Shown here: piece after piece, positions 34,032-64,000 of the stretch
How the letters are laid out: every line of letters starts with the position of its first letter
Position numbering within the stretch: the first letter of the stretch is position 1
DNA from: Dictyostelium discoideum
Lineage: Eukaryota
Assembly (NCBI GenBank): GCA_000004695.1
Contig: CM000154.2
Span: 3,840,001-3,904,000, forward strand
Direction: 5' to 3'
DNA length: 64,000 nt
Notes under the pieces: model-generated
What the model saw: the letters and a program-made list of their open reading frames with translations, nothing else
What the model was told of the DNA's origin: nothing
The model's database searches: none
Position numbers and translations under genes: made by a program

Positions 34032-34080
<49 letters not shown>

Positions 34081-34325: not shown

Positions 34326-34380
<55 letters not shown>

Positions 34381-34924
34381 AAAATTGAAATATGAAAAAA
34401 AAAAATACGAAAAAAAAAAGATTAAAAAAAAAAGTGATCATACATAAAAAAACTAAATTAATTTTTTAATTTTTTTAATTTAATTTAAAATAATTTAATT
34501 TAATTTTTTTTTTTTTTTCTGGGAGTATTAATTAAAAATTAAAAAAAATATTTATTTTTGTTTCCATAAGATTTTTTAACTGCCACCGGTTATATTTTCC
34601 TGAAATATGGGTATTTGGATTTTTTTAAATTTAATAAAAAAAAAATTTTTATTGGATAGGGTCCCCCAAACCGGTTTTTTGATATTTAATAGTGTGGAAC
34701 CCCTCTTGGGCGAGTTATTTTTGGAAAAAAAAAAAAAAAAAAAAATTGATTTTTTTTTTTTTTTTTTTTTTTTTTTGGTTAATTTGTTGAATCAGACTGC
34801 CTGTTATCCTCTCTTTTTTTTTTTTTTTTTTTTTTTCCTTTGACCATTTTTTTATATATATTTTTGTGCCTTATTTAAATAGTTGGCTTTATACAGAATT
34901 AATTTTTTTAAAAATTTTGATTTT

Positions 34925-34958
<34 letters not shown>

Positions 34959-35069
34959 CACGATTATTAAAATTAATTTTCAAATCGTAAATCCGAAATT
35001 TTATTTTTTTTTTATTTTTTTTTTTAGTATTATGTATTTATTTTTTTTATTTTTTTTTTTCTTAAAATA

Positions 35070-35106
<37 letters not shown>

Positions 35107-35193
35107 CAAATTATAATTTTTAATAATAAAAATAAATTAAATTAAAATAAAATAAAATAAAATAAAATAAAAATAAAAATAAAATAAAATAAA

Positions 35194-36827: not shown

Positions 36828-36858
<31 letters not shown>

Positions 36859-38028
36859 TCTAATAATCTACAACCAACAATTCAAACTAATCAAACACTA
36901 TCATCAAATATAAATAATATAACAATTTCAAATTTAAATAATAGTAATTTAACCAATAATGGTACATGTAAAATACAAAATTCACCACCAAAAAATTATC
37001 AACAATCAAATTATTCATCAATATTTAATGGTCCATCATCATCATCCTCTTCTTCACCATCTTCACCAATTTTAAGTTTAAATTCATTAGCATTAATTAA
37101 TGGTAATGATAATTTAGTTTTTGAATCACCATTAAATTCACCACGTAATAATAATAATAATAATAATAATAATTCACCAAGATCATCATCATTTGGTGCT
37201 TCATCAGCTTTAAAATTTAATAGTAATAATAATAGTTTAAATATAAATAGTAATATGGGTGGTCCATATTTTCCATCACCAAGTTCACCAACCACCAATA
37301 ATATACCAAATATTAATCATTTTTCAAGTAGGATTTTATCATCATCAAAGAATCTGGAATTTAATGATATTGATGAATTTGAAATTGCCAAACAATTGAC
37401 TTTAATAGAATTTGAAAACTTTGGACGTATAAAACCAATCGATCTATTGACATGTGTAGATTTAAAACATAAAACACCTCATATCACAAACATTATGGAA
37501 AGATTCCATAATATCTCCACTTGGGTTAGTACTACCATTGTTAGAGGTGAAAATTTGAAAAACAGAGTTAAAATCGTGAATAAATTCATAAAGATAGCAG
37601 AACATTTGAAAAATTTAAATAATTTCAACTCACTAACTGCTATATTAGTGGCAATTCAAAGATCAACAGTAACTAAAAAAGATTTGGTTAAACAATCTGT
37701 AAAGATTATCACTGATCTCGAGAAATTAATGTCCTCTGATGACTCTTATTCTACCTATAGAACTCGTTTAGCTCAATGTTCACCACCTTGTGTTCCATAC
37801 ATTAGTATCTATCTTCAAGATATTATGGATTTAGAGAAAAAGAATCCTTCAAATATCATTGTTCAAACCTCTTCAAATAAAACTCAAGAATTTATTAATT
37901 TCACTCGTCGTTCTTTAATTAGTAAAGTAATCTTAGATTTAGCAAGTTATCAACGTTTTGGTTATTCAACAATTTTACCAATTTCAAATATTCAAGAATA
38001 TTTAAATGTACATATAGATGAATTATAA
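35194..38028 (+). CDS. RING finger + B-box + coiled-coil (TRIM/RBCC-like) N-terminus fused to RasGEF N-terminal and RasGEF (CDC25-homology) catalytic domains; single exon, 944 aa
   Basis: RING 'CGICQNLFKDPNTLIPCGHAFCLDCL...CIQCK'. B-box 'YCMEHYEHYYAFCNDCQAPVCPSCLLTTHNRHG'. A coiled-coil stretch follows. RasGEF-N 'LNKLIERLCLPNCYDDNYVNIFLLTYHSF'. RasGEF 'IAKQLTLIEFENFGRIKPIDLL...NFNSLTAILVAI...YLQDIMDLEK'. Confidence 0.85.
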
Positions 38029-39006
38029 AAAAAAAAAAAAAAAATAAACTAAAAATAAATAAACTAAAAATAAATAAAAATATAAACTTAAAGATATTTA
38101 AAAAAAAAAAAACTATGTTGCATAGAAAATAAAAAAATAAAAGTAAAAAAAAAAAAAGAGTCGACAAACCCCACCAACCTATTCCTTAAAATAAATAAAA
38201 AAAAAAAATAATTCTGTCTTTTATATATTTTCTTTTTTTTTTTTTTTTTTTTTTTATTATTTTTTTTTTTTTTTTTTTTAATTTGTTTTATTTTATTTTT
38301 AGATATTTTTAAAATATATAATATTTATAAAAACTATTTTAATCCCACCAGTGAGATTTAATGCCTGGCGCCCACGTCGATTTCTTTTTTTTTTTTTTGA
38401 AATTTTTTTTTTGAAATTATTTTTTTTTTTTTTTTTATAATTTATTTTGAATTTTTCAATATTTTATATATTTTAGTCATATATATATAAAAACCAAATT
38501 GTATGATTTTTTAATTAATTAATTTATTTTATTTTTATTTTTATAATATTTTAATTTATTTGTTTTATGTAAATTATTTTGTCTTTTTTTTTTATACACC
38601 AACAAAACACCCCACATCGACCAACGATTTTTTTTTTTTTTTTTTTTTAAAAAATTTTATTTTATTTTTTTTTTAATTTTTTTTTTTTATTTTTTTATTT
38701 TTTGAATTTTTTCAATAACTTTTTTGTATCATAATTTGCACACATTGTTTTTTTTATCATTATTTATTTTATTTATACACATTGTTTTTTTACACACACT
38801 AAAATTTAATATATTATATTAACCATTCATCTAATTCACACCACTCAAAGGTACATTAATTAAAAATCAAAAAAAAAAAAAAAATTTCAAAGAAAAAAAA
38901 AAAAAAAAACAAATCAATCATCAAGTCTTCAACTTTCTATATACACAAACAACTCTTAAAAACTCAAACATACAAATATTATAAACTAAATATATATATA
39001 CATAAA

Positions 39007-39466
39007 ATGTCGTAAGTATTGTTTATTAATATATTAGTTTATTTACTTATTTATTTAAATACAATTATAAATATTAATATTAATATTTATAAATAATAAA
39101 AATAAAATTAAAAATAAAAATAAAAATAAAAATAAAAATAAAAATAAAAATAAAAATAATTCTAGAAATAATCCAAATAATTCAGGTCAACCAAATAAAA
39201 CACAATCAATTCTACAAGAAGTTGATAAAGTTAAAGATGTTATGCATAATAATATTGGATTAATGTTAAATAATCATGATAAAGCTTCAAATTTACAAGA
39301 TAAAACAGCATCAATGAGTAACAATGCTCGTCTTTTCAAAAAACAAACTGTTACAATCAGAAGACAAATGTGGTGTAGAAATATGAAATTACAACTTATT
39401 ATTATTGCTGTAGTCATTTTAGTATTGGCTGTAATTTTAATTCCAATTATTATGAAATTCGTATAA
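39007..39466 (+). CDS. Synaptobrevin/VAMP-type R-SNARE, 2 exons: 39007-39011 (ATGTC) and 39166-39466 (about 101 aa)
   Basis: SNARE motif 'ILQEVDKVKDVMHNNIGLMLNNHDKASNLQDKTASMSNNARLFKKQTVTIRRQMWCRNMKLQLIIIAVVILVLAVILIPII', with the R-SNARE arginine and a C-terminal TM. The ATG is followed after 5 nt by GTAAGT, and the acceptor TTCTAG is in phase. Confidence 0.7.
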
Positions 39467-40553
39467 TAAGAAAAAAATAAAAGAATTTAAAATAAAAATA
39501 AAAAAATAATAAAAATAAAATAAAATAAAAAATTTTTAAAAAAAAAATAAAAAAAAAAAAAAAACAAATTAAGCTATTATTTATTATTGATTTATTCAGA
39601 TAATATAAATTTTATTTCAATTTAATTTCAACTGAAAAAATAAAAAATAAAAAATAAAAAATGAAAAAGATATTAAAAATAGATCAAAAAAAAAAAAAAA
39701 AAAAGTTATTATTAGTTGTGTATATGTGTGTTATAAAATTTTCATCCAATTTATTTTCATATCAAAACAGTTCATACAAATATCTTTTTTTTTTTTTTTT
39801 TTTTAATGCCATCAAAAAATATCTTGGAAAAAAAAAAAAAAAATTTTTAATTAAAATAAAATTTTATTTGTGTGTTTATGTATAAAAAAAAAAAAACATT
39901 TTATTTTAAATTTTAAATTTTTTATTTATTTTTAGAATTTTATCTATTTTTAATTTAAGGATTTAAAAAAAAAAAAAAAAAAATAAGTCTGTATTTCATT
40001 TCCAATTGCAGGAATTTAAAAATTACAATAATTATTAATATTAAATTTAATTAAATTAATTTATAAATAATATCATCGAAAAAGTTAAAAAAAAAGGCAA
40101 AAGACTTTCATTTATTTATATTTTGACACATAGGCATGATTACTATTTTTATTATGTGTTACTAATACTATCATTTACACACACACACATACACAAAACT
40201 TTTACCGTTTTTTAACCATCTGTGGTGTATACAACCACTTTATTTTTTATTTTTTTATTTTTTTTAATTATTTATTTAATTATTTTTATATTTTTATTTT
40301 ATTTTAAATATATTTATTTTTATTTTATTTTATTTTATTTTTAATTTTCTTTTTTTTTTTTTTTCTTTTAGTTGTTTTTTTTATATCAATAATTATAAAT
40401 TGTACGATATTATTTGTTTAGTTATTTTTGGTTTTTTTTTTATTAAAAAAAATAATAATAATAAAAATAATAAAGTTTATTTATTTAGTACTGTTTTATA
40501 TGTATATATTTATATAAAAAATAGAGTTATTGTTCAAACTTTTTTTTCCTAAT

Positions 40554-44517: not shown

Positions 44518-47500
44518 TTTATCAATAGAATCAATTCAATTTATTATTCAATTAGATAATATTACATTATTTAAATATAATTCAGAGAATGATTTAATTT
44601 TTACAAATACAATAGATTATTATCAAACTATTTCAATGGATTTGGATAATGAATTATTTGGAGATTCAAACTATCACCTTTTAAAAATAACTTCAAATAA
44701 AATGAAATCATTAAATGAAAATGGAAATGAAAATGAAAATCCATTATCAATTTCAATTGATAATATTTTAATTTATAAATTACCAATTCAAACTATAAGT
44801 AGGTATTTTAATTAATTGATTTAATATTATTTTTTCAAATTATTAATTTATTATTATTTTTAGGTTCAGATTTATATGTATCAATAAATGGTAATGATGA
44901 AATTGGTAATGGTACAATTCAATCACCATTTAGAACTATTCAAAAAGCTATTGATTCAATGAATAATACAGATCCAAATCAAGATTATACTATTTATATA
45001 ATTGGTACAACTTATGAATTTCAACAAGGTGAAACGGTTTTTAATAGAGGAAAAAGAATTAATTTAAAAAGTTTTCAAAGTAATGATTATTATTATTATG
45101 ATGATGATAATGATGATGGTAATGTTTTAATTGAAATTTCAGAAGATTATTTTGGATTACTTTTTGTATCAACTTCAGTTATATATCAATTGAATTCTAG
45201 TATTACAGTGATAAATGAAACTAATATTCAATGGATAGTTAATGATTATCAACAATTGTTTAATCAAGCATTATTATTTAATTTTCAAAGTATTGAGTTT
45301 TCAATTTATAATTTAACATTTAAAGATTTAAATAATGATAATCAACAAATAAATGAAACATTTTCAGCATGTCAATATTCAAATTTGGCAATATACGGAT
45401 TAACATTTTCAAATGTACTAAATCCACCATTTCATGGATTTTTCATTGGAAATAGAGGTTCGACAATGTCACTTTACGATTTTTATTTAGAATACTTTGG
45501 TCAATTTGGTATTAATAATTTCATTTCAATGTTTTATAATAATTTTAAAATTGAAACTGCTGAATTTTTTTGTTTTCAAGCAATGTTTATATTCCAAGAA
45601 TCAAATGTAACAATTAATAATATATATGTTAATGGGTTTTGTCCATTCATAGTGGATTTAGGTGATAATCAACAATTTTCAATTGAAAATTCAGTATTTA
45701 CAAATATAACATTAGATGATAATTATTTAATAGCGATTTCAGCACCTCAACTATTGTTAGGAGGAGGAGGAGTAGATTCAGCGATACAGTCAATGGTTAA
45801 CCCTTCAACAGTAATAAGTTTAAAAAATTTAAAAATTTTTGATTGTCAAATGTTAAGGTTTCTATTATCAGATATTCTTGGATTTTTAGAAATTGATGGA
45901 CTTCAAATGGATGGTATTTTTAGTTTAACTGAATTATTTCGAATTTCAAATCCATTTCAAATGAAAAATTCAAATGTTGGTGGAATATATCTACCAAGGC
46001 AATCACTATCACCATTCAATATACCAATTGCAAAATTTTATTTTTTAGAAGGTACTTTTGAAAATGTTATATTTAGTGAAATTAGTTCAAATATTATTAA
46101 ATCATTTTTATATTTTGATAGTTGTATAATAGAATTTTATAATTGTTCATTTTTAGACTCTGATGATGTATCATTCGTTAGTTCAACACAATCAGAGATT
46201 GTATTTGATACATTCGTTTTCTCTGGTCTTCAAAATGGTATTGTCTTCTATGAAGGGAATGGAACGAAATTGTTTTTAAATAATATTACTATGAAGAATA
46301 GTCAAATTGGGTTAGCATCGGATAGTTCATATGATATAGTTTTAAATAATTCAAAAATAATTAACAATGCAGCTTTAAACATGCAAAAGTATTCAATACC
46401 AATGTTCACATGTTTAAATGAAATTGTCATTGAAAATACATTATTTTACAATAATGAAGCTTTTACATTAATTTCAACATTAAATAATAATTTAACATTG
46501 GTGAATAATAAATTCCATTCAAATGTGTATGGTCCGTTAATTGTTGCAAGTCAAGGTGTATTCTATGCAGATCAATTAGAGATTGTTGGTAGTTATTCAG
46601 CAAATACTTACTCAAGTGCATCAATCTATTTATATACAATGACTTCAATTAGTTTTATAAATTCAAATTTCATTGGTGTATCTTGTCCATTGAGTATAAC
46701 ATTTTCAGTGGATACCTATTTTGATAATTTAAATTTTATAAATTCAACAGGTGATACAATTGTAATTAATTTATTTTATGTTTTGGGTACTTGGAGTAAC
46801 TCATTTATTGAATCACTTTCAACTTCATTATTAGCACCATCTTTTAATTATCAATATTCTGGAATTGAATTCTCAAACGTTTCATTCTCTTCAATATCTT
46901 CATCAAATTATCCATTTGGTATATACACTGGCTCAATGGTTGGTTTTTATTATTGTAATTTTTCACAATCAATGAGTGTGGTCAGTGGTGGTATGTTAAT
47001 GTACCAAATGAGTGATGTTTTATTTCAAAATTGTAATTTCAATTCTAATTCATTAAAAGATGCGATTTTAGTATCACAATTTTCAAATATACAAATGAAT
47101 GATTGTAATTTCATTGATAATAATGCTATGCTGACATCAACAGTTTCAGCACTTGAAAGTAATTTAACATTTACCAATACATTATTCTTTGAAAATACTT
47201 TATCAATAACAATTAATATTACAAATTCAAATGTTAATTTTAATAATTGTACATTCCTAGACAACAATTCCCCAAGTTCAATTATATTATCCAATAGTTC
47301 AAGTATTACATTTAATTCATCGAAAATGAGGAATAGCAATTCAAAGAGTTATTCAACATTTTCTTTAATTCAAGATACTGAAAGTAATTTAATATTTCAA
47401 AATTCAACATTCTCATCTTTATTATTATTTAATACACCGATTTTCTTTTTAAATGGAACTAGAATGTCAAGTTTTAATTCAACATTTTCAAATACCACAA

Positions 47501-50046
47501 ATTTGAATGGTTGCGGTGGTGTTTTCTTTTTTTATAGATGTGATATACTTTTAATTTCAAATGAATTTCAATTTAATAATGCTCATTTAGGTGGTGCAAT
47601 TTATTCAATTTATTCAAAACTTGAAATTTTATATTCAACATTTTCAAATTTACTTTCAACTAGTGGTTCTGCAATATTTAATTATAAATCAAATGTTACA
47701 TTATCTGAAACTATTTTTAAAGAAAATCAAGCAAAACGAGGACCTTATACAGATATTCAAGATACAAGTTCAATATTTTTTAGTGGTGGTTCAATTTTCA
47801 TTTCAAAGGATTACTTTAATACAAATAATATTAATGATGGTGATGGTGATGGTGATGGTGGTGATGGTGATGATAATGATTTTATTTTACCAATTTATGA
47901 AAAGAGGTATCTTTATTCTAGATTTAATATTGAATATTGTCAATTCATTTCAAATAGTGCAATTAAAAATGGTGGTGCAATTTTTAATAATGATCAATAT
48001 TCAAATATTAATATTACAATCTCACAATTTTATTATAATCAAGCATATTTATCAGGTGGTGGTGCTATTTATCCATTATACCCAATTACAGAGAATATGG
48101 TTTATTTTTATGGTGATATAGCACCATATGGTAATTATATTGCTTCCAATATCTCAAGATTAAATATATCATTAGCTCCAAATAATTTTGGTATTCAAGC
48201 TTCAACTCCATTTTTAATTTACATTAGTGCTATTGATATTTTTGGAAATACAATTTATAGTGAAAATCCATTAATTTATTATATTTCATTAGAGATAAAT
48301 GTATATAATGGTAGTGGTAGTGGTGGTTATTTAATGAATACAACTTTAGTGTCAAATGCATATACAGGTTATATTAATAGTTTTGAAATTGAAAATAGTA
48401 AGAGTCTTAATGTTGGTTCTATTTTCTCATTCAAGGCTTCACTTACATCAGATCAACAATTAAAAAAAGTCATAACTACAACAATATGGAATTCAACGAT
48501 TGTAGGTTGCCATCAAGATCAGTATGTCGATAGTAATGGTATTTGTCAAATTTGTCCACCAGGTACGTCAGGTTATAATAGTATAGATTGCTTCACATGT
48601 GCAGATCAATTATATTGCCCAGGTGGTGACGTAGTTGAATGGGTTACTGGATATTGGTTTGATAATAGTACAACAATTGATATAGGCCCACCAATAATTT
48701 ATTCATGTGATCCAACATTATGTATAGACTATACGTGTAGAGAAAATCATCAAGGTATTCTTTGTGGTCAATGTTTACCTGGCCATTCTAAAGTTATGAA
48801 CTACTGTGTACTATGTTTTGATGCCCTTACTTTTTTTAACCCATTCATTGTATTCTTTTTTACAGTGTTTGTATTAATGGTTACAATATTATTACTATTT
48901 TATGATATGCCAAATAGATCAATACTTTATTCAACATTTACAAATATTCAATTCATTAGTATGTTGGCACAGAAATCTTCAAATTATACATTCTTTCAAA
49001 TTTTTAATTTCCGTATTGATTACATTTCTAATTTTTGTGCATCAAATAATTTAAATTTCCTTGAAAAATCTTTTATTGGTTATGGTTCGATGTTTTTTAT
49101 ATTATTAGTTTCAAATATTTTAAAATCAACCAATTTCAAATTTATTCAAAAAATAAAAAGTAAAATAAATTCAACCACTACCACCACCACCACCACCACC
49201 ACCACAACCACAACTATAACGCCAATCAAATTAAAACCAACATTTTTAAATAATTTCATTTCATCATCAATTCTATTCTTTATACCGAGTTGTTTATTTG
49301 CAATTCAAACATTAAATTGTGTATTTATAAATGGTATCTATTATTTATACTATGATACAGAGATAACTTGTTTTGATAGTTTTGAACATACAATTGGAAT
49401 GGTTATTTCTTGTTTGGTACTCGCATATTATTTAATTGTAATCATTTATTATTTAATAATATTAATTAAAAATAATGGTTTTATTTGGATATTTCAATTA
49501 ATTTTACAAAGAGTATTTAAACTTCGTAATATTAATAATTATAGTAATAATAGTATAAATCAATCAGATTTTGCTCAATTAAATTATCGTGGTTTAAATT
49601 CAAAAACAACAAAAACAACAAATAATGTAAAATTTAAAAAATTAAAAAAATCAAAAAAAGAAACAAAATTAAAAATAATTTATTTTTCACATTTTATCAA
49701 AAGATATCAATTCTTTCAAGAATTACAAATAATTTTAAACTTTTTATTTGTGGCATCCTCAACATTTTTAATTCAAAGTTCTTCAAAATCAGAGTTAATT
49801 ATTTTATCATTTTTAAGTATTTTCTTTTATATTCAAGTTTTATTACAACCTTTTAAAAACAAAGAAAGAAATTCTATTGAAATTTTGTTTAGTTTTATTT
49901 TATTATTTGCATCTTTAGTTAATAACTCTAGATTTTTTAGTACATTTCATATTGGTTATACATTATTAGCTTTGTCAGGCTTAGTTTTACTTTTAACAAT
50001 TTTTTACCATTTTAAAAAATTAAAATTAAAAAAAATAAATAAATAA
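44018..50046 (+). CDS. Very large (~1.98 k aa) protein: signal peptide, poly-Ser tract, right-handed beta-helix/Pmp-repeat (GGAI, FxxN) extracellular region, Cys-rich module, ~8 C-terminal TM helices; 2 exons: 44018-44798, 44864-50046
   Basis: Exon 1 has signal 'MLTKMISKWSLLKVILVLLFL' and (TCA)n poly-Ser. A GTAGGT donor / TTTTTAG acceptor joins in phase to 'GSDLYVSINGNDEIGNGTIQSPFRTIQKAIDSM', typical of pectate-lyase-fold N-termini. 'FQFNNAHLGGAIYSIY' and 'NGGAIFNND...SGGGAIYPLYP' are Pmp-type repeats. 'CPPGTSGYNSIDCFTCADQLYCPGG' follows, and multiple hydrophobic helices run after residue ~1290. Confidence 0.7.
44407..44513 (+). repeat. (TCA)n coding microsatellite (poly-Ser, ~35 residues)
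   Basis: Perfect catcatcat... run within exon 1 of the large Pmp-repeat gene. Confidence 0.9.
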
Positions 50047-50594
50047 TAAAATATATTATAATTTTTTTTTTTTTTATTTATTTAATTTATAATTTATTAA
50101 TTTAGTATAGTTAATTATAATTTATAATTTATAATAATATATTTATTTTATATTCACTACTTATTAATAATTAATTAATTATTATTATTTAAATATGTTT
50201 TATATCAATTATTTATTATAATTTTTATAATATGATTATAAAATAAAATAATTAATGATAAAAAAAAAAAAAAATAAAAAAAAAAAAAAAAACCAATCAT
50301 AAGTCTAAAAATATAAAATTAAAAAAAATTTATTTATATTTTTTTAAAAAAAAAATAATTAAATTATATATTTAAAAAAAAAAAAAGGTAGATTAATAAT
50401 TTTTATTTGTTTTTTATTTTTTTATTTTTTTTTTTTTTGGACAGTAATCGAGTTCTCCAAATTGAAAAAAAAAAAAAAAAATCATTTTAAAAAAAAAAAA
50501 ATCTCAAAAAAAAAAAATGAAGAATTACAAAAATAAAAAAAGATAAAAAAAGATAAATAAATTAATAAATAAATAAATAATTAAATAAATAAAA

Positions 50595-51900
50595 TTGAAG
50601 ATGAATTTAATTTTTAAATATTATTTATTGTTTTTGATCTGTATTTATAAAGTGTCATCTGATTTCTCACCATTAACAATCAAAAGGTTGAATGCTTTTA
50701 TTGATTTAGAATACCAAGATTATTTTCAAATAAATTCAGTAATTTCATTTAATCAAACTATTTTTCAAAGTAATCAAATAAATTATATTACTTCACTCGA
50801 TAATTCTGGTAAGTTTAAATATATATAAATTTTCTATTTTCTTTTTTTTCACCTTTTTTTTACTTTTTTTTTTTTTCACTTTTTTTTTTCACTTTTTTTT
50901 TTTTTTTTTCTCCAAATAAAATTCGTACTAATAAAATTAAAACCAAAAATTTTGAAGACTTAATAATAAATGATAATAAATTTAATAGTTGGAAATTAAA
51001 TAAAGAATCAAATGAATTAAAGATAATTAATTTAGAGATTGAAAATCAATATGATATCGATTTACCGTTAGAATTTATAGGTAATTTTGAAAATGTTTAT
51101 ATCACTAATAATACTGGGTTTTCATCAAGTTGTTTTATTTATGCAGGAGTGGAGATACCTTATACTCTTGATTATTCAAATAATGATACATCAACCTATA
51201 AAATATTTCAATTTAAAACAACTCCTTTAAGTTTAAAATTAAAATTTAAACCATCTTCATTATTTCCTTCTTCTTCTTCCTCTTCTTCCTCTTCTCCTTC
51301 TTCCTCTTCTCCTTCTTCAATTACTATTAAAGATACATCAAATTTAGAAACTTTAAATAGTTTATTAGATAATAACTATATTGTATTTGAAATTGATAAA
51401 AATCAAAAATTATTGTCAAAGTTTTTCCTACCAAAAATTCACATTGGCGAAGGATTAAATAAAATTGGAATCACAAGAAAATCTGTTAAAGATTATTTAT
51501 TAACAACATGTAATAATACATATGAACCAATAACAACTGTTGGTAATTCTAATAATGTGTAAGTTTTATATTTTATATTTTTTAATTTTTTAATTTTTTA
51601 ACTAATAATTATAAACTATTTTATAGATATGATCAGTTTTATTTATTTAGAAATAATACAATTAATAATATTTTATCAACAGGATGTGATATTAATTCAA
51701 TGGATATCTATTCACCAGATAGTTCAATAATATTATCTTGTGATATAATGAATACAAAATTTACAAATATTACATCTAACATTTCAATGTTATTCAAATT
51801 ATCAAGTTTTCCCATTATAAATTCAACTGCAATTCCTATTTTAAGTGGTGGAATTGTACCATTATCTACAAACTATGATAAATCATTTTCAACTCTATGT

Positions 51901-51936
<36 letters not shown>

Positions 51937-53275
51937 TTGTGTATATATATTTAAAACTTTTTTTTATATTAACAAAAAAAAAAAAAAAAAAAAAAAAAAA
52001 TAATAATAATAATTTATTATATTTTAGATATTGATATTTTAAATAAAGGAAATGATAATGCTTTATTTAAAATTATATTACAATATTGTAGAAATGATGG
52101 TAAATTTAATTTTAATATTTCAGATGACCAATTAATAATTGATAGAAATGAAAAATCAATGATAGTTAATAATGATAATTACCCAACTAGATTAACTTTC
52201 TCTTTAAAGAGTAGATCAAGTTCAATATCAACATTAGGTTTTTGTAAATTTTCAATCTATCAAAATGATCAATATTATTCAGATTTTATAACAAACTTTT
52301 CAACTTCAATTCTAGAATTTACACCAAATCCAAATAATATAGCAGGAAGAGAAGTTAGAATTAATAATAATTATAATAATTTAGAAAATAAAATTGTTTC
52401 GACTACTACAAATTGTTTAGCACCTAAAATATTAAAAACTATAAATGGTGTTGAATATTGTGTTAATGAATGTACAATTGATCAATTATTTAATAGTGAT
52501 ACATTAGAATGTACACCAACAAAATGTTATATAAAGTATATTTCAAATGTACCACAAAAGATTTACTATAATTCAAATAATGGTTTATGTGAAAGTACAC
52601 CAAGTTGTCCAAACGGTTATATATATGAATCTAATACATGTGTAGCCCCAAAACCAATAATAAATGATTCAAATTCTAATAGTAATAGTTTCAGTGATTC
52701 CTCTTCATCTTTTGTATTCCCATCATTTAGTGATGGTTCTTATTTTAATGAATTACCTGATGCTCCTAGTGGTCCCTCAACAGCTTTAATTATTATTATT
52801 TTCGTTGTTGCTTCTGTATTACTATTTATTGTACTTTTCTTTATTATTAGAAAATGTTGTTCACGTAAATCAAAAGAAAGAGTTAAAAAAGATAAAATTA
52901 AAGAGTATTATAGTAATAGACCAATAAAACAATTAGATCAACAACCACAGCAGCAGCAACAACAACAACAGTTTCAACAATTTCAACAACTACAACCACA
53001 ACCATTAATCCAAAAACCACAACCACAACAACAACAACACCAAAGACAAAGACCAATCCAACAACAAATAGTACAAACAAATCAAGTTATTCAAAGAAGA
53101 CCACAACAAAATCGTCAATTATCACCTCAGCAAATGCAACAAAGAAGACAACAGCAATTACAACAAAATCATGGAGTTCAAAGAGGATTACCACAGCAAT
53201 ATGGCCAGTTATCACCTCAGCAAATGCAGCAAATGCAGCAAAGAAGACAACAACACCAACAACAGCAATATCTAT

Positions 53276-53277
<2 letters not shown>
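50595..53277 (+). CDS. Hypothetical type-I membrane protein (signal peptide, Cys-rich ectodomain, TM, Gln/Pro-rich cytoplasmic tail), 4 exons: 50595-50808, 50958-51558, 51627-51898, 52028-53277 (~779 aa)
   Basis: Four ORF segments on the same strand are connected by GTAAGT/GTATGT donors and AG acceptors with consistent phases. Signal 'MKMNLIFKYYLLFLICIYKVSS'. TM 'ALIIIIFVVASVLLFIVLFFII' followed by RKCCSRK. The tail is poly-Q. No family assignment is possible. Confidence 0.55.
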
Positions 53278-53351
<74 letters not shown>

Positions 53352-53390
53352 TCAACAAAAACAACAACAACAACATCAACAAAAACAGTA
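53278..53390. repeat. (CAA)n microsatellite (~37 repeats) immediately 3' of the stop codon and in frame with it
   Basis: caacaacaa... begins directly after TAA 53275-53277. The same frame stays open to a TAA at 53395-53397. Confidence 0.9.
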
Positions 53391-53525
53391 CTTTTAAAAA
53401 TAGTAAAATACACAATTTAATTAATTAAGTTTAAGATTAAAATTTTAATATTAATATTTTTATTATTGTTTTATATAACTTTTTTTTTTTTTTTAAAAAA
53501 AAAAAAAAGAATTGAATTTGTATAT

Positions 53526-54095
53526 TTATAATTTATATCTGTTATAGAGAGATGAACCAATACCAAATGCAGAACCACCCAATAATGCAAAGAATGAGAT
53601 ATGGGATAAGCAAGTGTGAACATTTTTTGCACAATCATTTTCTTTTTCCTTTTTGCAACAGTATGAACAACAGTTTAACATTTTACTTACTAACCAAGTT
53701 CCACCCAATAACAATGAACATTTTGGTGAAATGTAATATGAAAACATAAATGTTGCTGGAATAATGGCACCCAATGCTTCTGAGGTATTTTGATATTCGT
53801 GTGCAATTCTCTCGAATTCTGGGTCGCCTTGTACATGTGGTGCTTTTACCTTTTTTTTTTTTTTTATTATTTTTAAAAAAATAATATTAATAGTCAATTT
53901 ACTATATATTTTTTTTTTTATATTTTAATTGATTTTATTATTTATTTTTAATTTTTTAAATTTACTTACATTATATCTTTTACGAGCTTCACCTAATTTG
54001 TATGCTTGGACACTCCATAATCCAATAGCAATGGTTGAAATTGCTGATGGGAACACTATGAAATCTGGAAAAATTGATTTTGTATCAAATGGCAT
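53526..54095 (-). CDS. MAPEG family, microsomal glutathione S-transferase 3-like, 2 exons: 53970-54095, 53526-53849 (~149 aa)
   Basis: 'KLGEARKRYNVKAPHVQGDPEFERIAHEYQNTSEALG' aligns with MGST3 'NVSKARKKYKVEYP...DPENGHIFNCIQRAHQNTLE'. Four hydrophobic helices are present. The intron has a GTAAGT donor (plus-strand 'acttac' 53964-53969) and an AAAAG acceptor. Confidence 0.75.
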
Positions 54096-55672
54096 TTTTA
54101 TATTACTTTGTTAAAACTATATTAAAATTTGAATAAAAAAAAAGTATTGATAAATCACTAATAATAAAAAATTAAAATTTTAATATAAAAAAAAAAAAAA
54201 ATAATAATAAAATTTTAATAATAAAAAATATAAAAAAAAATAAAAAATATAATAAAAATGTAAACAAAATGTAAACAAAATGTAAACAAAATGTAAATAA
54301 TTACCACTACCACTATTTTTTATTCTTTTTATGGAAAATAGATAATTTTAACCCCATTTACAAACAACAGTGGGGGCAACACTATCACAAATAATAATAA
54401 TAATGAACATACATTTTCCACTATCAAAACCCAACCCACAAACACACTATTAAATAAAAATATCGTGAATATACATAAAAATTAACTTTTTATATAAAAA
54501 TACAAATACAATAATTATTAATTATTTTTTTTAAAAATAACAACAATAGGATTTCTATGTAATTAAAAAAAAAAAAAAAAAAAAATTTAATTTAAAAATA
54601 AGATAAAATAAAATAAAATATTTTTATAATGATCCATTGATTAATTTTGTTTCAATTTTTATTTTTAATTTTTTTTTAATATTGATTAATCACCGTTTAA
54701 ACAATAATAATAGTTTTATTTATGAATTTTATATTTTAAAAAGTAATAATTATCTTTTTTTTTGAAAGAATGTATTTGATTTGATGAATTAGTTAAATAA
54801 GATAAGATTTAGAAGCACTGATTCCGAAAAACAATAAACTTTTCAAGTTAGTTTTTTTTTATTTTTTTATATTTGTTTGATAAAATCATTTGGGTCTCTG
54901 AAATTACCAGTGTCTTTTGAAAGAGTTAATTTCAAGTCTTTTGCTTTTTTTATATATTCTAAGGTAGCTAGTTTATACCATTTATTAAGTAGGATATTGT
55001 TTTTTTTTTTTTTTTTGTTTTGTTTTTATATTACCAATTGGGCTTTTGTTGTTTCAAAAAAAATAATTTCAGTTTTTTGCAATTCACAATATTCTATTTA
55101 TTTTTTATTCGAGAATCGAACCCCCATCTTACAAATAGTCAAATGTTCGATTCTCGATTCATCCATTATTGGAAATTTTTTAGTTTTGGAGTTCCAAAAA
55201 AAAAAAAAAAAAAAATTGTAAAAGTTTAAATGCATCCAAACGATATTAAAAATATTATTTCAAAACCACTAAATAAATTAATTGATAAAAAGGATTTAAA
55301 AAGGATTTATTTAATATTTTATAACTAAAAAAAATTAGAACATAAAATATTACGTCATGATTATTAATATCCAAGACGTTAAAAAGTTTAATTTTCAATT
55401 TAAAAAACAATAAAATCTGGGGAGACAGATAAAAAATTTTTTTAAAAAGTGGGAATCTAACACTTTTTCTTTGATAATAGAGTAATACAGTTATTAATTA
55501 AATTTTTTATTTTTAATTTTTTTTTTTTTTTTTTATTTTTTTTTTTTATTTTTTTTTTATTATAGAAGAAATATATTTTTTTTTTATAATAAATATTTTA
55601 TTTTTTAACTCCTTTTTTGTATATATATACATTTAAAATAGATTTATTTTTTTTAAATTTTTAAATAAAAAA

Positions 55673-57403
55673 ATGAATTTAATTTATACTATCATTTTGA
55701 CAATAATAATATTGGTTTTAATAATATCAATTAAAGTAATTATGATTTTAAAAAATAAAAATTTAGAAAATTAATTAATAGTTTTTTTGTTATAAAATTT
55801 AGGATTTATTTTTTGAAGATAAAATTAAAAAAATTAACAAATCAATACCCAGTCCTCCAACAATTCCCATTTTTGGAAATTTACTACAAATAAATTCAAA
55901 AGATGTTGCAACTTGTTTTAATGATTTTTATAAGCAATATGGAAAAGTTTATAGACTTAGATTAGGTAGTGTTGAAACTGTAGTTCTAACTGGTGGAGAT
56001 ATTATTGATGAATGTTTTAATAAAAAATATAGAGATTTTTTAAAAGCAAGATATGTTAAATTTTCAAGATATTTAGGAAAAGATACTAATATTTTACATT
56101 CAAATGGTGATTATCATTTTCTTTTGAAAGGAGTTTTATCAAGTCAAGTTACTGTTAGAAAATTAAATAATGGAAGATTGGAATTTAATAAATATATATT
56201 GCAAATGTTTAATAATTTAAATAATAATGATGAGGGGTCAACAATGTTTCTTGCTAATGATGTTCCATCTCAAATTAAAAAACTTATTTTAAAAGTTGTT
56301 TTAAATTTCACATTAGGTATTGAAGAAAATGATGATATAAATTTATCACTTTTTCAAAATGGTTCTAATATTTTTAAAGCTGCTGGTCTTTTTATTTACT
56401 CCGACTATTTACCATTTCTATTCCCACTAGATATAAAGTCAATGGCTAAATCTAACATGATTTCAAGTTATGTGTTTGTAAGAGATTATTTAGCAAAGAA
56501 ATTAGAAGAAGTTAAGAAAAAAGAATATATAATTAATGGTGATGATGATGGTGGTGTTGATACTTCCCAAACACCACTAATCGAGAGCTATTATAAACTT
56601 TATTTACAAGGTTTAATCGGATATGATTCTATTTTATTATCAATTGTTGATATAATTATTGCATCAGTTGATACAACATCAAATTCAATTTCTTTTATTA
56701 TAGCTAGATTAACTAATCATCAGGAAATTCAATCTAAAATTTATGAAGAAATTATGAGTAATGATATTAATAATAATTCAAATAATATTTCATTTTCTGA
56801 TCATTCCAAATATCCATATATAATTTCAATAATGAATGGTAATTATAAATTATAAAATTAAAAAATATTTATAAATTATTAAATTAAATAATTTTTATTT
56901 TTAAAAAATAGAAACATATAGATACTATGCATCAGTTCCTTTACCTGAACCAAATATGACTACTGAAGATATTGAAGTGGATGGATATAAAATTGCAAAA
57001 GGTACACAAATTTACAAAAATATAAGAGGTACACTTATATCAAAAGAGTTTTGGGGTGAAGATGCATTAGAATTTAAACCAGAAAGGTTTAAAACTCAAA
57101 CTTTAAATCAAAAAGGACTTCTTCATTTTGGTGCTGGTATGTATTATTATTATTAATATAAAATATAATTTTTTTTTTTTTTATTTTATTATTTTACTAA
57201 AAATTCTACTAAAAAAATAAAAAGGACCAAGAGGTTGTCCAGGTGCCAGGTTTACTGAATGTTTTTTTTTTACATTAATGGTTTTATTATTTAAGAATTA
57301 TAAATTACAAAATCCAAATGATAATCCAATTGATGATAGAGGAGATGTTGGTTTATCAATGCAATGTAAACCATATGATGCATTATTTATAAAACGAAAT
57401 TAA
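55673..57403 (+). CDS. Cytochrome P450 monooxygenase, 4 exons: 55673-55735, 55803-56838, 56912-57136, 57225-57403 (~500 aa)
   Basis: N-terminal membrane anchor 'MNLIYTIILTIIILVLIISIK'. Pro-rich hinge 'PSPPTIPIFGNLLQI'. ExxR region 'ETYRYY'. Heme-binding 'FGAG|PRGCPGARF' is split by an intron (GTATGT...AAAAAG). Phases are consistent. Confidence 0.8.
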
Positions 57404-57559
57404 ATATTAAACAAAATAAAGATATATAGAACTGGAATTAGTTTTTTTTTTTTTTTCTAAAAAATTATATATATGATTTAAAAAATTAAGGGCCACTCCG
57501 AAAAGCATATTTTTTTTTTTTCATAACTGTTCTTATATCAAATTGTATCAATAATGTTC

Positions 57560-59256
57560 TTACCAAGCCAAGAATACAAGATTATTTTCTTTAATTGAAA
57601 TTTGGGAAATATGGTTCAGTAGTTTTATTGAAATTTAAGAATGGATTTGGTAAAACCATATCACCACCTTTGTTACCACCAAGACATTGAATACATGATG
57701 GTACTGTTCCATTGAGTTGGTTATAGTTTAAATATAATAATTTTTTCTTCAATATGATTCGGGAATATCACCCACAACCTTTTTTAAAAAAATAAATAAA
57801 AAATTTCAATGTGTTAAATTAAATTACATTTTTAAAATAAAATATAGTTAATCATCTTTACTTACGACAGACTGGTATATGTAAATTCCAGTGAGTAATG
57901 GTGAGTTATCAATATTTGGTAAATATTGTTCATACTCATTATTTTCATCATAATAATAAGCAAGGTTTGAGAAATCAATACATTCATATTTTAATTGTTG
58001 AATATTGAACTTTTATCAAAATGTCTTAATTTTTTTTAAAAAATTTAAATTGTTGTTATAAAGGTAAATTTTTTTAAATTTTTTTTTGTAAGAATATTAC
58101 TACCTACATTTCTAAATAATTTTTAGACCTAATGTATGAAAGATCAATAATACCAACTGATTGGTCAATAATTGCACCTGAACCATAAATATATAAAAAA
58201 TCAATTACTGGAACATTTGATAAGAATGAATGAATTGAAAATTCTTGAGGATTATCACTATCAGTAAATTCAATACTTAAACCTTTTAAATTTTTAAAAA
58301 CCACATTGTTTGAAATGGAAAAGTTGTGTTTTTTTAAAAAGCAATAATATAATATTACCCAAATTTCAAAATTGATGAAAACTATAAAAATTTAGTAGCA
58401 ACTGATGGAATTGAAAAATTAATAATTACTGGTACTAATTTAGGTTGGTATGGAAATGATTTAACACCAATTATCGCAAATTCAAAATTAGGTATTACCA
58501 TTCCAAAGGGTGTTGTTACAAATAAGAGTATTACTGTAACTTTCCAAAATGGTGAACAAAGAACATTTAATTATAGTTACGTTCTTCCTTTCATTAAATC
58601 TTATAGTTTTTTAGAATTAAACGGTCATAAATATTTCACAATAAATGGTACTGGTTTCGATTTTGAGAATTCTAATAACATCACTATTAATGGTCAACAA
58701 ATTACATTTTATAATGCAATGGGAGGAGGTGATAATGATGGTATGGTATTATTACCTATTAATAATTTACCAAGTTTTGATAGTGAGACAATCCACGTTT
58801 GTAGGTGGTCAAAGTTCAAATGAAGTTACATTTTATTATTTCAACTCAATCAATATTACTGAAGAGAATTTAGTTTTAAATAATACAGGTGGTTCAGTAG
58901 ATGTTAATGGTTCATTTGGTACTAATAATATATCATTAGTTTCTGTCTCAATCAATGGTACCAATTGTATAGTTACATCATACACAAACTCAAAATTAAC
59001 AATTACATATCCATCGAATCATGTTGGAGATAATTATGTTTTAACTTTGAATGTTGGTGGTTATGCAGTTAATCTTGTTGTTGAATACATTGAAGGCGGT
59101 GAAACTCCAACACCATCAACAACACCATCAACAACACCATCAACAACTCCAAGTTCAACTCAATCACCTGGCGATGATGGATCAACATCTTCAACATTAT
59201 CAATTTCATTTTATTTAATTACTTTGTTATTATTAACACAACAATTTATTCAATAA
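57560..59256. pseudogene. Rearranged partial duplicate of the downstream LRR-TIG gene: inverted segment (gene exon 2 end, exon 3 and start of exon 4) at ~57560-58322 joined to direct copy of the rest of exon 4 at 58338-59256
   Basis: The minus-strand ORF 58104-58304 '[31 protein letters not shown]...' matches 61890-62080. The minus strand of 57850-58030 matches exon 3 and of 57560-57780 matches the exon 4 start ('VVGDIPESY...[17 protein letters not shown]'). Plus-strand 58355-59256 matches 62690-63576, including the [10 protein letters not shown] linker and hydrophobic C-terminus. Confidence 0.65.
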
Positions 59257-60640
59257 TCAAAAATAAATTTTCTTAATTTATAAAAACCTATTTTTTTATT
59301 ATTTTTTTTAAATCTCTAAATATCTTTTTTTATTTTTTTTAATATATTATTATTTTTGCATAATGTCCCATGCCAATTTCATCACATTAATTTAAGAAGC
59401 TTATTAATTTATTAATTTGAGCATACACCTATTTTTAGTCATTGTCACTTATTAATGCTATTACTATTACTATCCTTTCCAATTGGTGTTATCATCTTCT
59501 TACTCTTATTTAGTAACTGATTCAGGTTTGAAAATTATTAAAATAGAGTTTTTGAAGCCAAATCATCTGTTGTTGGTGTTGTTGATGTTCTGTACCTGTT
59601 GATTTTGTTGCTTTTGTTGCTTTTGTTGGTTTTATTGCTTTTGTTGCTGTTGTTGCTGTTTTTGTTGCTGTTTTTTGATTTGATTGTGTTAATCTGAAAC
59701 AGAATCAACATGTTGAGTCGACAACAGAATCATTTGATCATCAACAACAAATGGGTATTTATCTGGTTGTGTTCCTGAAGTTGTTCCTGTGGTTGTTGTT
59801 GATACGATAACTACCTACTAATAATGATTGAAATTCACCATCAATATTGGTGATTGTTGAAAACCTGTATTGAAATAAGTTCTATAAATTGGTTGTGAAT
59901 GTTAAACAATATTTACCATCGACAAGTAGATTATCTGTTTGTTACTAGAATAGATCCTATTGGAGTTGTTGTTGTTGCTATGACGGTAAAATAATCACCT
60001 GCTAATAAATTATCAAAGATATAGTAGCATCAGAGTCTGTTGTTGTTTGAGTTACACTTCCATTTGAATCTTGAAGTAGTGATAATTGGACACATGGAAA
60101 GAATTGATTATCTTCTCTCTTTCCATCGCTATTCTTATAAACACGATACTGATACGATATCATTGAGTGGAACTAAACCAATATTGATTGTGTTAATTTG
60201 AAACAGTATTCGCATGTTAACTAATCTTAAATTACAATTGATATTGGTCTGTATTGCTAATAAATGATTGAAATTGTATTCACAATCAACACCTGTTTTA
60301 ACTGAAGCTGTTATAACTCATATTGCTTACACCATCGAAGCTGCCCGTGGACATATTGATATCATCAACAAACTCATAGTCCAACTAAAATTATGGGAAG
60401 CATCGTTACTAAATCTTTCAAATGGTTTGGAATTATCTTCCATCCATTTATCAAATCTACTGGGTATCAGCTTGTGATGTTTTAAGGTATTTGATAGATC
60501 AGCTATATCCAATACTCTTTTTCCTCACCCAAACTCATTATATTATATTATTTATGGTGAATGGGTTTGTAGTAAAATAACAATGAAAAAAAAAAAAAAA
60601 AAATAAATAAATAAATAAAATTTGCAGCGCCACACAAAAA

Positions 60641-60688
<48 letters not shown>

Positions 60689-61076
60689 GTGTAAATTTAA
60701 AGAGGGTTGGAGTATGATTGATTAAAATAAAAAAATAAATAAAAAAAAAAAAAAAATTTTATTACTTTTTCAAGGAAAGGGGCGATGAGATTTGAAAAAA
60801 AAAAAAAACCCGATTTCTCCAAAAAAAAAAATTATTTTAAATTTAAATTTTTTTTTTCTAAATACTTTCATACTTTTTGGCTTGATCAGTTTTATTTGAA
60901 AATTAATTTTTTTTTTTTTTTTTTTTTTATTTATAATTTTTTTTTTTATAAAATTAAAAAAAGTTTTTTTAGATAATTTTTTTTAAATTTATTACAGGGT
61001 AAAATCTTTTTTTTTTTATTTTAATTTTTTTATATCATTTTTTCATTATTTTATTATTATTTAAAAATAAAAAAAA

Positions 61077-61431
61077 ATGAAAATTATTTTAATATTATCA
61101 ATTTTTTTAATATGTTTTTTACAACTTGGACAATCAGTTATTGATCCATCTCAAAATGAGGTCATGTCAGATTTACTATTTAATTTGTACGGTTATGATA
61201 AGAGTCTAGATCCATGTAACAATAATTATGTTGAGTGTGAATATATCAATACAACAAGTACCATTCAAACTGTTAAATCTTTGTCTTTAGGTGCTCCCTT
61301 ACATCAATATGTAATCACTCAAGATTTAACTCCACTCCAAAATTTAACCAGTTTTGAAGTAAATGAAAAAATTTATTTAACTTCATCCTTTTTTAATTAT
61401 ATTAATAAATTCTCTCAACTTGAAAGAATGT

Positions 61432-61527
<96 letters not shown>

Positions 61528-63576
61528 TTAATAATTTAAATAATAGAGTTACATATTCTCTTAATCTAACAATTCCAGATGATACAATTTTCCCAGCAAT
61601 TTTTGAAACATTTACTATTTATAAACCTTCAGTTCCATTAAGTAAAGTAATTTTTGAATCACCTATTAAAAACTTATATGTTGATTCCCCTTTAACTGGT
61701 TACAGTATTCCAACTTTAGTAAATGTCAATCCATATCTTGGAAACCTTCAACTTCCAGTAACTTACTATTCAGGTTTTCCTTCAAATTTGTCTCAAGCAT
61801 TCCCAAATTTACAATATTTAGCCATCTATGTAAATAATGATATGAATCAAAATAATTACCACAACTTTTCCATTTCAAACATTGGAGTTTTTAAAAATTT
61901 AAAAGGTTTGGATATTGAATTTACTGATAGTGATAATCCTCAAGAGTTTTCAATTCATTCATTCTTATCAAATGTTCCAATAATTGATAATTTATATATT
62001 TATGGTCAAGGTGTAACTATTGACCCATCAGTTGGTATTATTGATCTTTCATACATTAATCCTAAAACTTTTTTAAAAATGTAGGTAATAATTAATATAC
62101 TTACAAAAAAAAAAAAAAAATACCTTTAACAACAATTTAAATTTTTTAAAAATAAAATTAGACAAATTCAACAAACTTCATTATTAAACAATTGTAAAGG
62201 CATTATTTTAAAATCACCAAAAAAAGCTTCTTTCAATTCTTACTATAATACATTTTCATATGAATGTATTGATTTCTCAAACATTGCTGATTTTTCTGAT
62301 TATTATAATGATTATGAACAATATTTACCAAATATTGATAATGCTCCATTACTCACTGGAGTTGACATATATCAGTCTGTTGTAAGTTTATCTTTACTTA
62401 GGTTATAATTAATTTTAAATTTATTTTATTATAAAAAAAATGTAGTTTAATTTAACACTTTTAAATTTTTTTTTTTAATTTTTTAAAAAGGTTGTAGGTG
62501 ATATTCCTGAATCATATTGTAGAATAAATTATTTGTCTCTATACTATAACCAACTCAATGGAACAGTACCATCATGTATTCAATGTCTTGGTGGTGTCAA
62601 AGGTGGTGACATAGTATTACCAAATCCATTTTTAAATTTCAATAAAACTACTGAACCATATTGCCCAACTTTCAAAATTGATGAAAATTATACACACTTA
62701 GTAGCAACTGATGGAACTGAAAAATTAATAATTACTGGTACTAATTTAGGTTGGGATGGAAATGATATAACACCAATTATCGCAAATTCAAAATTAGGTA
62801 TTACCATTCCAAAGGGTGTTGGTACAAATAAGAGCATTACTGTAACTTTCCAAAATGGTGAACAAAGAACATTTAATTATAGTTACGTTCCTCCTTTTAT
62901 TAAATCATATGGTTTTTTGGAATTAGACGGTCATAAATATTTCACAATAAATGGTACTGGTTTCGATTTTGTGGATTCAAATAACATCACTATTAATGAT
63001 CAACAAATTACATTTGATAATGCAATGGGAGGAGGTGATAATGATGGTTTGATAATATTCCCTATTGATGAATTACCAAATTTTGCTACTGAGAGTAAAT
63101 TTACAGTATCTGCACTTGTAGGAGGTCAAAGTTCAAATGAAGTTACATTTTATTATTTCAACTCAATCAATATTACTGAAGAGAAATTAGTTTTAAATAA
63201 TACAGGTGGTTCAGTAGATATTAATGGTTCATTTGGTACTAATAATACATCATTAGTTTCAGTCTCAATCAATGGTACCAATTGTTTAGTTACATCATAC
63301 ACAAACTCAAAATTAACAATTACATATCCATCAAATCAAGTTGGAGATAATTATGTTTTAACTTTGAATGTTGGTGGTTATGCAGTTAATCTTGTTGTTG
63401 AATACATTGAAGGCGGTGAAACTCCAACACCATCAACAACACCATCAACAACACCATCAACAACTCCAAGTTCAACACCAACCCAATCACCTGATGATGA
63501 TGGATCAACATCTTCAACACTATCAACATCTTTTTATTTGATTACCTTGTTATTTTTAATTCAACAATTTATTTAA
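61077..63576 (+). CDS. Secreted/GPI-anchored-type surface protein with signal peptide, plant-like LRR segment, IPT/TIG domain, Thr/Pro-rich linker and hydrophobic C-terminus; 4 exons: 61077-61429, 61547-62080, 62162-62381, 62491-63576
   Basis: Signal '[20 protein letters not shown]'. LRR-like '[31 protein letters not shown]'. TIG-like '[57 protein letters not shown]' and '[10 protein letters not shown]'. The '(TPSTTPS)n' linker and '[17 protein letters not shown]' are GPI-signal-like. Donors are GTAAGT/GTAGGT and phases are consistent. Confidence 0.75.
61436..61523 (+). repeat. 88-nt uninterrupted poly(A) tract inside intron 1 of the LRR-TIG gene, starting 6 nt after the donor
   Basis: Seen directly: gtaagt followed by ~88 a. 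Confidence 0.95.
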
Positions 63577-64000
63577 AATGTGATTTTAAGTGTAATAAAA
63601 GGAAATTATCATTATTTCAAACAAAAGCCAAATCAATTAATTTATTTTATGTAAGCCTTATAATTTTAATGGTAGTTTATAAACAGTTTTAACATCTTTA
63701 TTTTTTATAATTTTTTTTAGTTGTTGAATTATATACATATTATGATGACTTGATTATGTACTATTATTATTATTTCTAGTTAATGGGTTACTTTTACCTT
63801 TTATTTAAAATACCACTTTTAGTTTTTGCTAAAATATCACTATTACAACTACTACTAATTTGATTATTAATTAAAAATAAAAGTACTAATTTACACAAAG
63901 TTCAATTGGATCTAATGATTTCGATAGATGATTTAAATTTACAAGATAACACATTTCCATTGGTTATCAATTATATTTTATAATTGTAAATAGAACTTGT

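Follow-up and report, generated by a model that had tools for sequence, protein, structure and literature searches.

A partly inverted gene remnant at the edge of a tandem LRR-TIG gene array in Dictyostelium discoideum

Inversions flanked by short inverted duplications of the breakpoint are reportedly explained, in the Drosophila work of Ranz et al. (2007), by a staggered-break model, and complex rearrangements that combine deletion and inversion are said, following Lee, Carvalho and Lupski (2007) and Hastings et al. (2009), to arise by fork stalling and template switching (FoSTeS) or microhomology-mediated break-induced replication (MMBIR). Here we describe a rearrangement with features of both kinds in a 64,000-nucleotide stretch of Dictyostelium discoideum DNA (GenBank assembly GCA_000004695.1, contig CM000154.2, positions 3,840,001 to 3,904,000 of the forward strand; the window in what follows), where a gene remnant made of one inverted and one direct arm lies upstream of an intact four-exon member of the same tandem array. 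To our knowledge, this rearranged remnant has not been described before. The array family is probably that of the gp138-like (gp138/gp130) surface glycoproteins. Those of D. discoideum are treated by Chia et al. (2005; Mol Biol Cell 16:2681) and in earlier work by Fang et al. (1993, Dev Biol 156:201) and by Aiba et al. (1997, J Biochem 121:238), to which PMC2119896 and PMC2443395 refer. Our analysis suggests that the remnant is a dead unit at the array's edge, probably generated by one complex event and afterwards subject to gene conversion of its direct arm and to neutral decay.

A pairwise alignment of both strands against the intact gene (61077-63576) showed that the two arms derive from the same gene family. 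By BLASTN, the direct arm (58352-59253) matches 62658-63576 in plus orientation with 91.9% identity over 919 columns (E = 0), and the inverted arm (57581-58328) matches 62691-61860 in minus orientation with 78.6% identity over 832 columns (E = 0). The lower of these values is mostly due to gaps, as a global alignment gives 87.9% identity over 727 aligned columns for the inverted arm, with 90.5% in exon 2b, 84.3% in exon 3, where 61 nt are missing, and 91.3% in exon 4a, and the sequence of introns 2 and 3 is recognisable in both cases. Blocks of the inverted arm that align without gaps show 86-90% identity to the gene and terminate at 57595, which corresponds to 62675; the final ~14 bases of the BLASTN hit (57581-57594) are upstream flank that merely resembles the gene. 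The pseudo-copy proposed by the first-pass annotation, with the part from mid exon 2 to early exon 4 inverted and the rest of exon 4 direct, is hence real, but the gene-derived sequence begins at 57595 and not at 57560. The features of the locus are as follows, loci used for comparison being labelled L001 to L008.

57511-57598, plus strand: left flank, left over from the spacer upstream of the first array gene, 91% identical to L001 2201-2289
57595-58328, minus strand: inverted arm, derived from gene positions 61860-62675 (middle of exon 2 to beginning of exon 4) and disabled
58328-58108, minus strand: exon 2b of the inverted arm
58107-58025, minus strand: intron 2 of the inverted arm
58024-57866, minus strand: exon 3 of the inverted arm, 61 nt missing
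57865-57779, minus strand: intron 3 of the inverted arm
57778-57595, minus strand: exon 4a of the inverted arm
57595-57612, minus strand: copy X' of the 18-bp segment, ATATTTCCCAAATTTCAA, against ATATTACCCAAATTTCAA at 58352-58369 (17/18 identical)
58329-58351: junction filler, 23 nt, AT-rich, separating the two arms
58352-59256, plus strand: direct arm, derived from gene positions 62658-63576 and comprising TIG region, Thr/Pro linker and hydrophobic tail
58645-59256, plus strand: open reading frame (ORF) of 203 aa, codons 1 to ~49 out of the parental frame, the last ~154 in frame
59257-61076: array spacer between the remnant and the intact gene
61077-63576, plus strand: intact four-exon gene, 730 aa, with predicted signal peptide, LRR solenoid, TIG/Ig-like domains, Thr/Pro linker and C-terminal hydrophobic tail
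61077-61429, 61547-62080, 62162-62381 and 62491-63576, plus strand: exons of the intact gene, with GT..AG borders

Read from left to right, the locus thus consists of upstream flank, the reverse complement of gene positions 62675 to 61860, the filler, and the gene from 62658 to its end, with the junction joining gene coordinate 61860 to 62658. The segment of L001 that the left flank matches is located 140-230 bp upstream of the first array gene there (start at 2429 in L001), and the flank stops ~140 bp before the position of the first-gene ATG, as judged from L001. What is lost is the interval from -140 to 61859, a stretch of ~0.9 kb that held exon 1, intron 1, the beginning of exon 2 and the promoter-proximal DNA ahead of them. 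Because the arms hold consecutive segments of a gene and have only 18 bp in common, the remnant is an in-place inversion of one gene copy accompanied by a 5' loss of ~0.9 kb. A fold-back or mirror-image inverted duplication was considered and rejected on the same ground, since the arms cover 61860-62675 and 62658-63576, respectively, with just these 18 bp in both.

The firm overlap of the arms corresponds to gene positions 62658-62675 and is found at window positions 57595-57612 (minus strand) and 58352-58369 (plus strand). In the inverted arm it occupies the distal, left end, 730 bp away from the junction, and it is junction-proximal in the direct arm alone; a region of ~40 bp present in both arms at the junction, as had been proposed, was therefore not borne out. 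The 34-bp overlap suggested by BLASTN extends into the gene-like flank. If the filler, which has a marginal collinear match to gene positions 62629-62645 (14/17, p ~0.07), were a decayed continuation of the gene, the original overlap could have been ~47 bp. No second copy or template of the 23-nt filler was found in the window or in loci L001-L008, and a templated origin of the filler was dropped for this reason. Recombination between inverted repeats already present at both breakpoints was likewise discarded, as the intact gene shows no significant repeat there (p 0.16).

The remnant, judged by its sequence, is a dead and neutrally decaying unprocessed pseudogene that keeps its introns and has lost 0.9 kb at its 5' end. 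In the inverted arm we found in-frame stops, among them a TGT to TGA change in exon 4a, a 1-nt deletion in that exon, the 61-nt deletion in exon 3, and frameshifts; the direct arm carries a frameshifting 9+2-bp deletion at 58787-58791 and an in-frame deletion of 6 bp in the linker at 59155/59156, and its stop codon is displaced one codon downstream. The 203-aa ORF that had been noted in this arm, with its Thr/Pro linker and GPI-like (glycosylphosphatidylinositol-like) tail, is indeed present, but its first ~49 codons are out of the parental frame because of the 9+2-bp (11-bp) deletion, and only the following ~154 codons, from the last part of the TIG region through the Thr/Pro linker to the hydrophobic tail, are read in frame. 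Private substitutions were scored by comparison with the L001 orthologue and two closely related paralogues. There are 22 in the intact gene (12 synonymous and 10 non-synonymous, p = 0.0013 against neutral expectation), and this gene is under purifying selection, whereas the 23 in the direct arm are 5 synonymous and 18 non-synonymous and are spread 8/7/8 over the codon positions. The synonymous share in the direct arm is 22%, against 23% expected under neutrality, a comparison of modest power given only 23 sites, and the substitution classes of arm and gene differ in a Fisher test (p = 0.033). As 23 random substitutions would leave the frame free of stop codons with a probability of 0.28, the open 203-aa frame needs no selection to account for it.

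The position of the remnant in the array is consistent with a unit of its own. A cytochrome P450 gene on the plus strand terminates near 57405; our hand-built model of it is 98% identical to the AX4 protein P0015, which locus L006 of the chromosome-level assembly GCA_054883475.1 encodes exactly. The genes of the window match D. discoideum, and its DNA belongs to the AX4-type lab lineage. The AX4-type order is P450 gene, remnant, 730-aa gene and a spacer with two small minus-strand gene calls, after which come three full copies (734, 746 and 752 aa), a 3' fragment of 168 aa and then unrelated genes; a search with the frame-corrected direct arm returned two fragments only, one of which located the distal end of the array. 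Within the right spacer, 59501-60364 corresponds to the DNA that separates genes 2 and 3 in L001, so that the remnant occupies the place of array unit 1, or of units 1 and 2; 59449-60041 has a weak match in L006 to the spacer that follows the intact gene. The remnant is, in short, a paralogous array unit and not a fresh copy of its neighbour; it had been described as a copy of the downstream gene, which is right as to the family but not as to the unit, given that both its flanks have counterparts among the array spacers of L001. The first unit after the P450 gene is a 703-aa gene in L001 and no more than a 5' start with a 165-bp 3' tail in L003. The number of direct copies also varies between lineages; after the same P450 gene there are at least 5 in L001, 2 in L003, and several plus fragments in L008/L002, and L004 has at least 6, in a stretch that excludes the P450 side. 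We are looking, that is, at a surface-glycoprotein array of 2 to at least 6 copies across lineages, which decays from its edge. We also observed, in the array spacer at 59560-59700, a (TTG/CTG)n-like tract whose minus strand would read as a Gln/Asn-rich coding repeat and which bears a weak resemblance to the spacer that follows the intact gene, in which the small minus-strand genes were called; it may be the relic of a gene carried with each array unit.

Small inversions are found in decaying copies of other lineages as well. In D. cf. discoideum (GCA_054859205.1), the array unit that comes straight after the P450 gene (L008 9764-10420) is reduced to a patchwork, in which a direct 5' part running to ~61667 in gene coordinates, an inverted exon 2 piece (~61710-61785), a G+C-rich filler of 20 nt and 33 bp from exon 4 can be recognised, the inverted piece of ~70-76 bp lying between direct pieces. 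In the same assembly, exon 3 of gene 2 in L002 (4483-4586) contains a perfect 36-nt inverted repeat with arms at 4483-4518 and 4551-4586, its 32-nt core is flipped relative to all other copies, and ~35 bp are deleted alongside. This copy has the topology of the remnant in the window (deletion, inversion and flanking inverted duplication), but is young.

Regarding the mechanism, one gene copy lost ~0.9 kb (-140 bp through the first part of exon 2), and its next 0.8 kb (61860-62675 in intact-gene coordinates) was flipped in place; at least 18 bp from the right breakpoint now flank the flipped segment on either side as inverted copies. In the single event that we favour, the nascent strand would have switched away from its template upstream of the gene, proceeded backwards along the opposite strand from ~62675 to 61860, and returned to the original template at ~62658, that is, a double template switch of the FoSTeS/MMBIR type; an inversion through staggered breaks with rejoining would yield an identical product. 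The collinear direct arm would later have exchanged sequence with its neighbour by gene conversion, from which the inverted arm would have been excluded, and both arms decayed neutrally; the remnant encodes no functional protein. A replication-based template-switch origin is plausible, if unproven. It had been suggested earlier that a replication-based or fold-back rearrangement, and not simple unequal crossover, was responsible; crossover alone cannot in fact invert a segment, and template switching is a plausible source, but the geometry does not fit a fold-back.

An identical final structure would result if the changes had come in two steps, with a staggered-break inversion of 61860-62675 that duplicated the 18 bp and a later, separate deletion from -140 to 61859. 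Simple deletions are frequent in the array (the L003 5' start joined to a 3' tail, and the 168-aa 3' fragment in L007), and a 23-nt junction filler is typical of end joining; the later deletion, however, would have to terminate exactly at the left breakpoint of the inversion, and we favour a single event because in gene 2 of L002 deletion, inversion and inverted duplication occur together while the repeat is still 100% identical. We regard the two-step origin as unlikely. Less probable still, and to our minds quite improbable, is that the arms are unrelated fragments, the inverted arm being the relic of an old paralogue and the direct arm a younger partial 3' duplicate of the downstream gene. 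Both arms group in a clade with the intact gene and L001 genes 3-5, but the direct arm goes with the intact gene, with which it has 16 states in common that are absent from the gene's L001 orthologue (4 of them unique among 17 copies), and the inverted arm does not, with 4 states exclusive to it and the intact gene against 24 common to the gene and its L001 orthologue. The private substitution rate is likewise 2.8% in the direct arm and 7.1% in the inverted arm. Against this origin, the breakpoints of the arms lie within 18 bp of each other and overlap without a gap, for which the chance is ~1-2% in a 2.5-kb gene, and exonic identity to the intact gene is alike in the two (90-91% and 92%). The difference in affinity would be explained by conversion confined to the collinear arm, and the simplest reading of the data is that the direct arm was homogenised with the neighbouring intact gene by gene conversion after the rearrangement and that the inverted arm was not. 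A difference in age between the arms, as the BLASTN identities of 78.6% and 91.9% might suggest, was rejected, since gaps explain it; in intact paralogues, moreover, the region that matches the inverted arm is generally more diverged than the 3' region.

Tandem arrays whose units are 80-93% identical are easily mis-assembled, and the remnant could in principle be an artefact, either a mis-oriented segment or reads mis-joined from different array copies. We give this almost no credence. The 2001 bp at 57400-59400 are 100% identical in L006 of GCA_054883475.1, which is collinear with the window over 45664-64000 and differs from it by one single-nucleotide polymorphism and by homopolymer lengths (the poly(A) of intron 1 of the intact gene is 60 nt shorter, and the T-run at 60645-60685 10 nt shorter); because of these differences we consider GCA_054883475.1 a different assembly of the same lab lineage. 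At aligned positions the arms diverge by ~8-12% from the downstream gene, and their divergence from every aligned copy of other lineages is at least 8% for the direct arm and, counting gaps, at least 20% for the inverted arm; in L006 and L007, which cover the whole array of this lineage, no copy is closer to the arms than the downstream gene. Being divergent from every copy compared, the arms do not appear to be mis-joined reads of another copy, and the flanking inverted repeat of 18 bp is far below read length and cannot cause mis-orientation. Mis-assembly of the remnant is accordingly very unlikely on this sequence comparison.

That the direct arm still works, and yields a truncated GPI-anchored TIG protein from the ORF at 58645-59256 or from a spliced 283-aa model, also strikes us as highly improbable. 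It is true that ~150 codons are open in each of two frames, that the out-of-frame N-terminus of the ORF is hydrophobic and could mimic a signal peptide, and that an automated pipeline placed gene calls of 110 aa and 283 aa on the two arms in GCA_054883475.1, the latter on the direct arm. The substitution pattern, however, is neutral, there is a frameshift inside the TIG region, and neither the native promoter nor exon 1 nor the signal peptide is left; with the probability of no stop given above, an open frame without selection suffices. Exact-product look-ups found none for the 203-aa ORF, for a 66-aa minus-strand ORF or for a neighbouring 372-aa ORF, and the collection consulted records no gene with a product of this kind. 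The first-pass proposal that the ORF could be expressed as a truncated surface protein is thus not supported, the 110-aa and 283-aa calls are almost certainly pseudogene fragments, and in annotation the 203-aa ORF should not count as a surface protein.

Returning to the favoured history of a dead array-edge unit formed in one complex event, we acknowledge several points that weigh against it. GCA_054883475.1 may not be technically independent of the assembly of the window; the differing phylogenetic affinities of the arms could equally mean an origin from different copies; the sequence evidence does not separate a template switch from breakage and rejoining; the microhomology at the left junction is ~2 bp (TT), which is uninformative in DNA of 78% A+T; and the gp138 assignment draws on the family's general features and one UniRef name, not on a sequence comparison.

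The 730-aa translation of our exon model for the intact gene agrees with the 730-aa gene call at the equivalent place in GCA_054883475.1 (L006). The window has ~22% G+C, introns are short and A+T-rich, and intron 1 of this gene (61430-61546) is almost wholly a poly(A) run of ~90 nt. In the encoded protein, a TIG domain (Pfam PF01833) is matched at residues 505-591 with 37.9 bits (E 1.8e-9; cut-off 20.9), and Pfam LRR models remained below threshold, LRR_14 scoring 10.9 bits (E 0.18; cut-off 40). A profile of 13 family members searched against PDB sequences matched HSL1 (E 2.1e-14) and LRX2 (7e-8), and also PRK6 and TMM. An AlphaFold model of an orthologue that is 88% identical has a mean pLDDT (predicted local distance difference test score) of 74, with a confident strand-turn solenoid at residues 25-390 and beta-sandwich domains after it; the solenoid has a short strand every 12-30 residues (typically ~22), and its block-mean pLDDT values are mostly 80-96. 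By Foldseek the solenoid resembles internalin A, BRI1, PSKR and Lingo-1, and the sandwiches resemble the IPT domains of plexin/MET. We further counted 18 NxS/T N-glycosylation sequons, and noted a signal-like N-terminal segment, a Thr/Pro stalk and a terminal hydrophobic stretch without a cytoplasmic tail. The label given to this gene at first, LRR-TIG with a GPI-type tail, is a fair description and agrees with the Pfam TIG match, the LRR-profile and Foldseek matches and the hydrophobic tail, the anchor itself being predicted. Homologues retrieved by protein search were from Dictyostelium only, one from D. firmibasis being named "Cell surface glycoprotein" by UniRef. The same search returned no named AX4 member of the family, although AX4 proteins of neighbouring genes appeared, and the exact 730-aa sequence was not found in the protein collection searched.

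As for what the remnant may mean, the stop codon of the P450 gene, which is on the plus strand, lies ~190 bp upstream of the start of the inverted arm, and the plus strand of this arm is antisense to exons 2-4 of the family, with ~85-91% identity in the conserved exon blocks and 71-80% over the whole arm, introns and gaps included. One could imagine that read-through or local transcription produces an antisense RNA fused to a sense 3' segment, and that this RNA feeds the Dictyostelium RNA interference machinery and dampens expression of the surface-glycoprotein array, but we hold this to be very doubtful. On a more modest version of this speculative reading, the three independent small in-place inversions with adjacent deletions in decaying copies could indicate that template switching is a characteristic mutational mode of this A+T-rich genome; recurrent small inversions with flanking deletion or duplication are, in any case, modest material on rearrangement mechanisms in an extremely A+T-rich genome. 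The remnant itself has an ordinary explanation; its value lies mainly in annotation and in the caution that it calls for, and it neither opens nor settles a major question.

Elsewhere in the window, two tandem paralogous ORFs on the plus strand (25470-27890 and 28824-30914) have matches to ComC supersandwich, TIG, DUF7949 and EGF-like domains and are presumably the other TIG-domain family of this stretch. The RasGEF/RING gene region at 33165-40039 is 98.8% identical to L005 of GCA_054883475.1 (43 mismatches in 6.9 kb), and the 944-aa RasGEF/RING protein is identical in both assemblies; the 18 kb around the remnant are 99.9-100% identical.

When set beside known systems, the encoded family agrees with gp138/gp130, a multigene family specific to Dictyostelium whose proteins are ~730-750 aa long, begin with a signal peptide, are rich in N-glycosylation sequons, and have a Thr/Pro-rich stalk and a hydrophobic C-terminus of GPI type. 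With extracellular proteins that combine LRR and Ig-like/IPT domains (HSL1, BRI1, internalin A, plexin/MET), the intact protein has in common a plant-type LRR motif and a predicted solenoid followed by beta-sandwiches, but it lacks a kinase or transmembrane domain and ends in a GPI-type tail. The remnant resembles unprocessed pseudogenes at array edges in that it keeps introns and spacers, has no 5' end, carries indels and stops, and evolves neutrally, and the array-edge unit is degraded in two other lineages too; it differs from them in its internal inversion and in that one half is apparently still homogenised with the neighbour. Finally, like the inversions attributed to staggered breaks or to FoSTeS/MMBIR, the remnant has a flipped segment, an inverted duplicate of the breakpoint, an adjacent deletion and a filler, whereas, unlike them, it is confined to 0.8 kb within one gene copy, and it is old, with its microhomology decayed.

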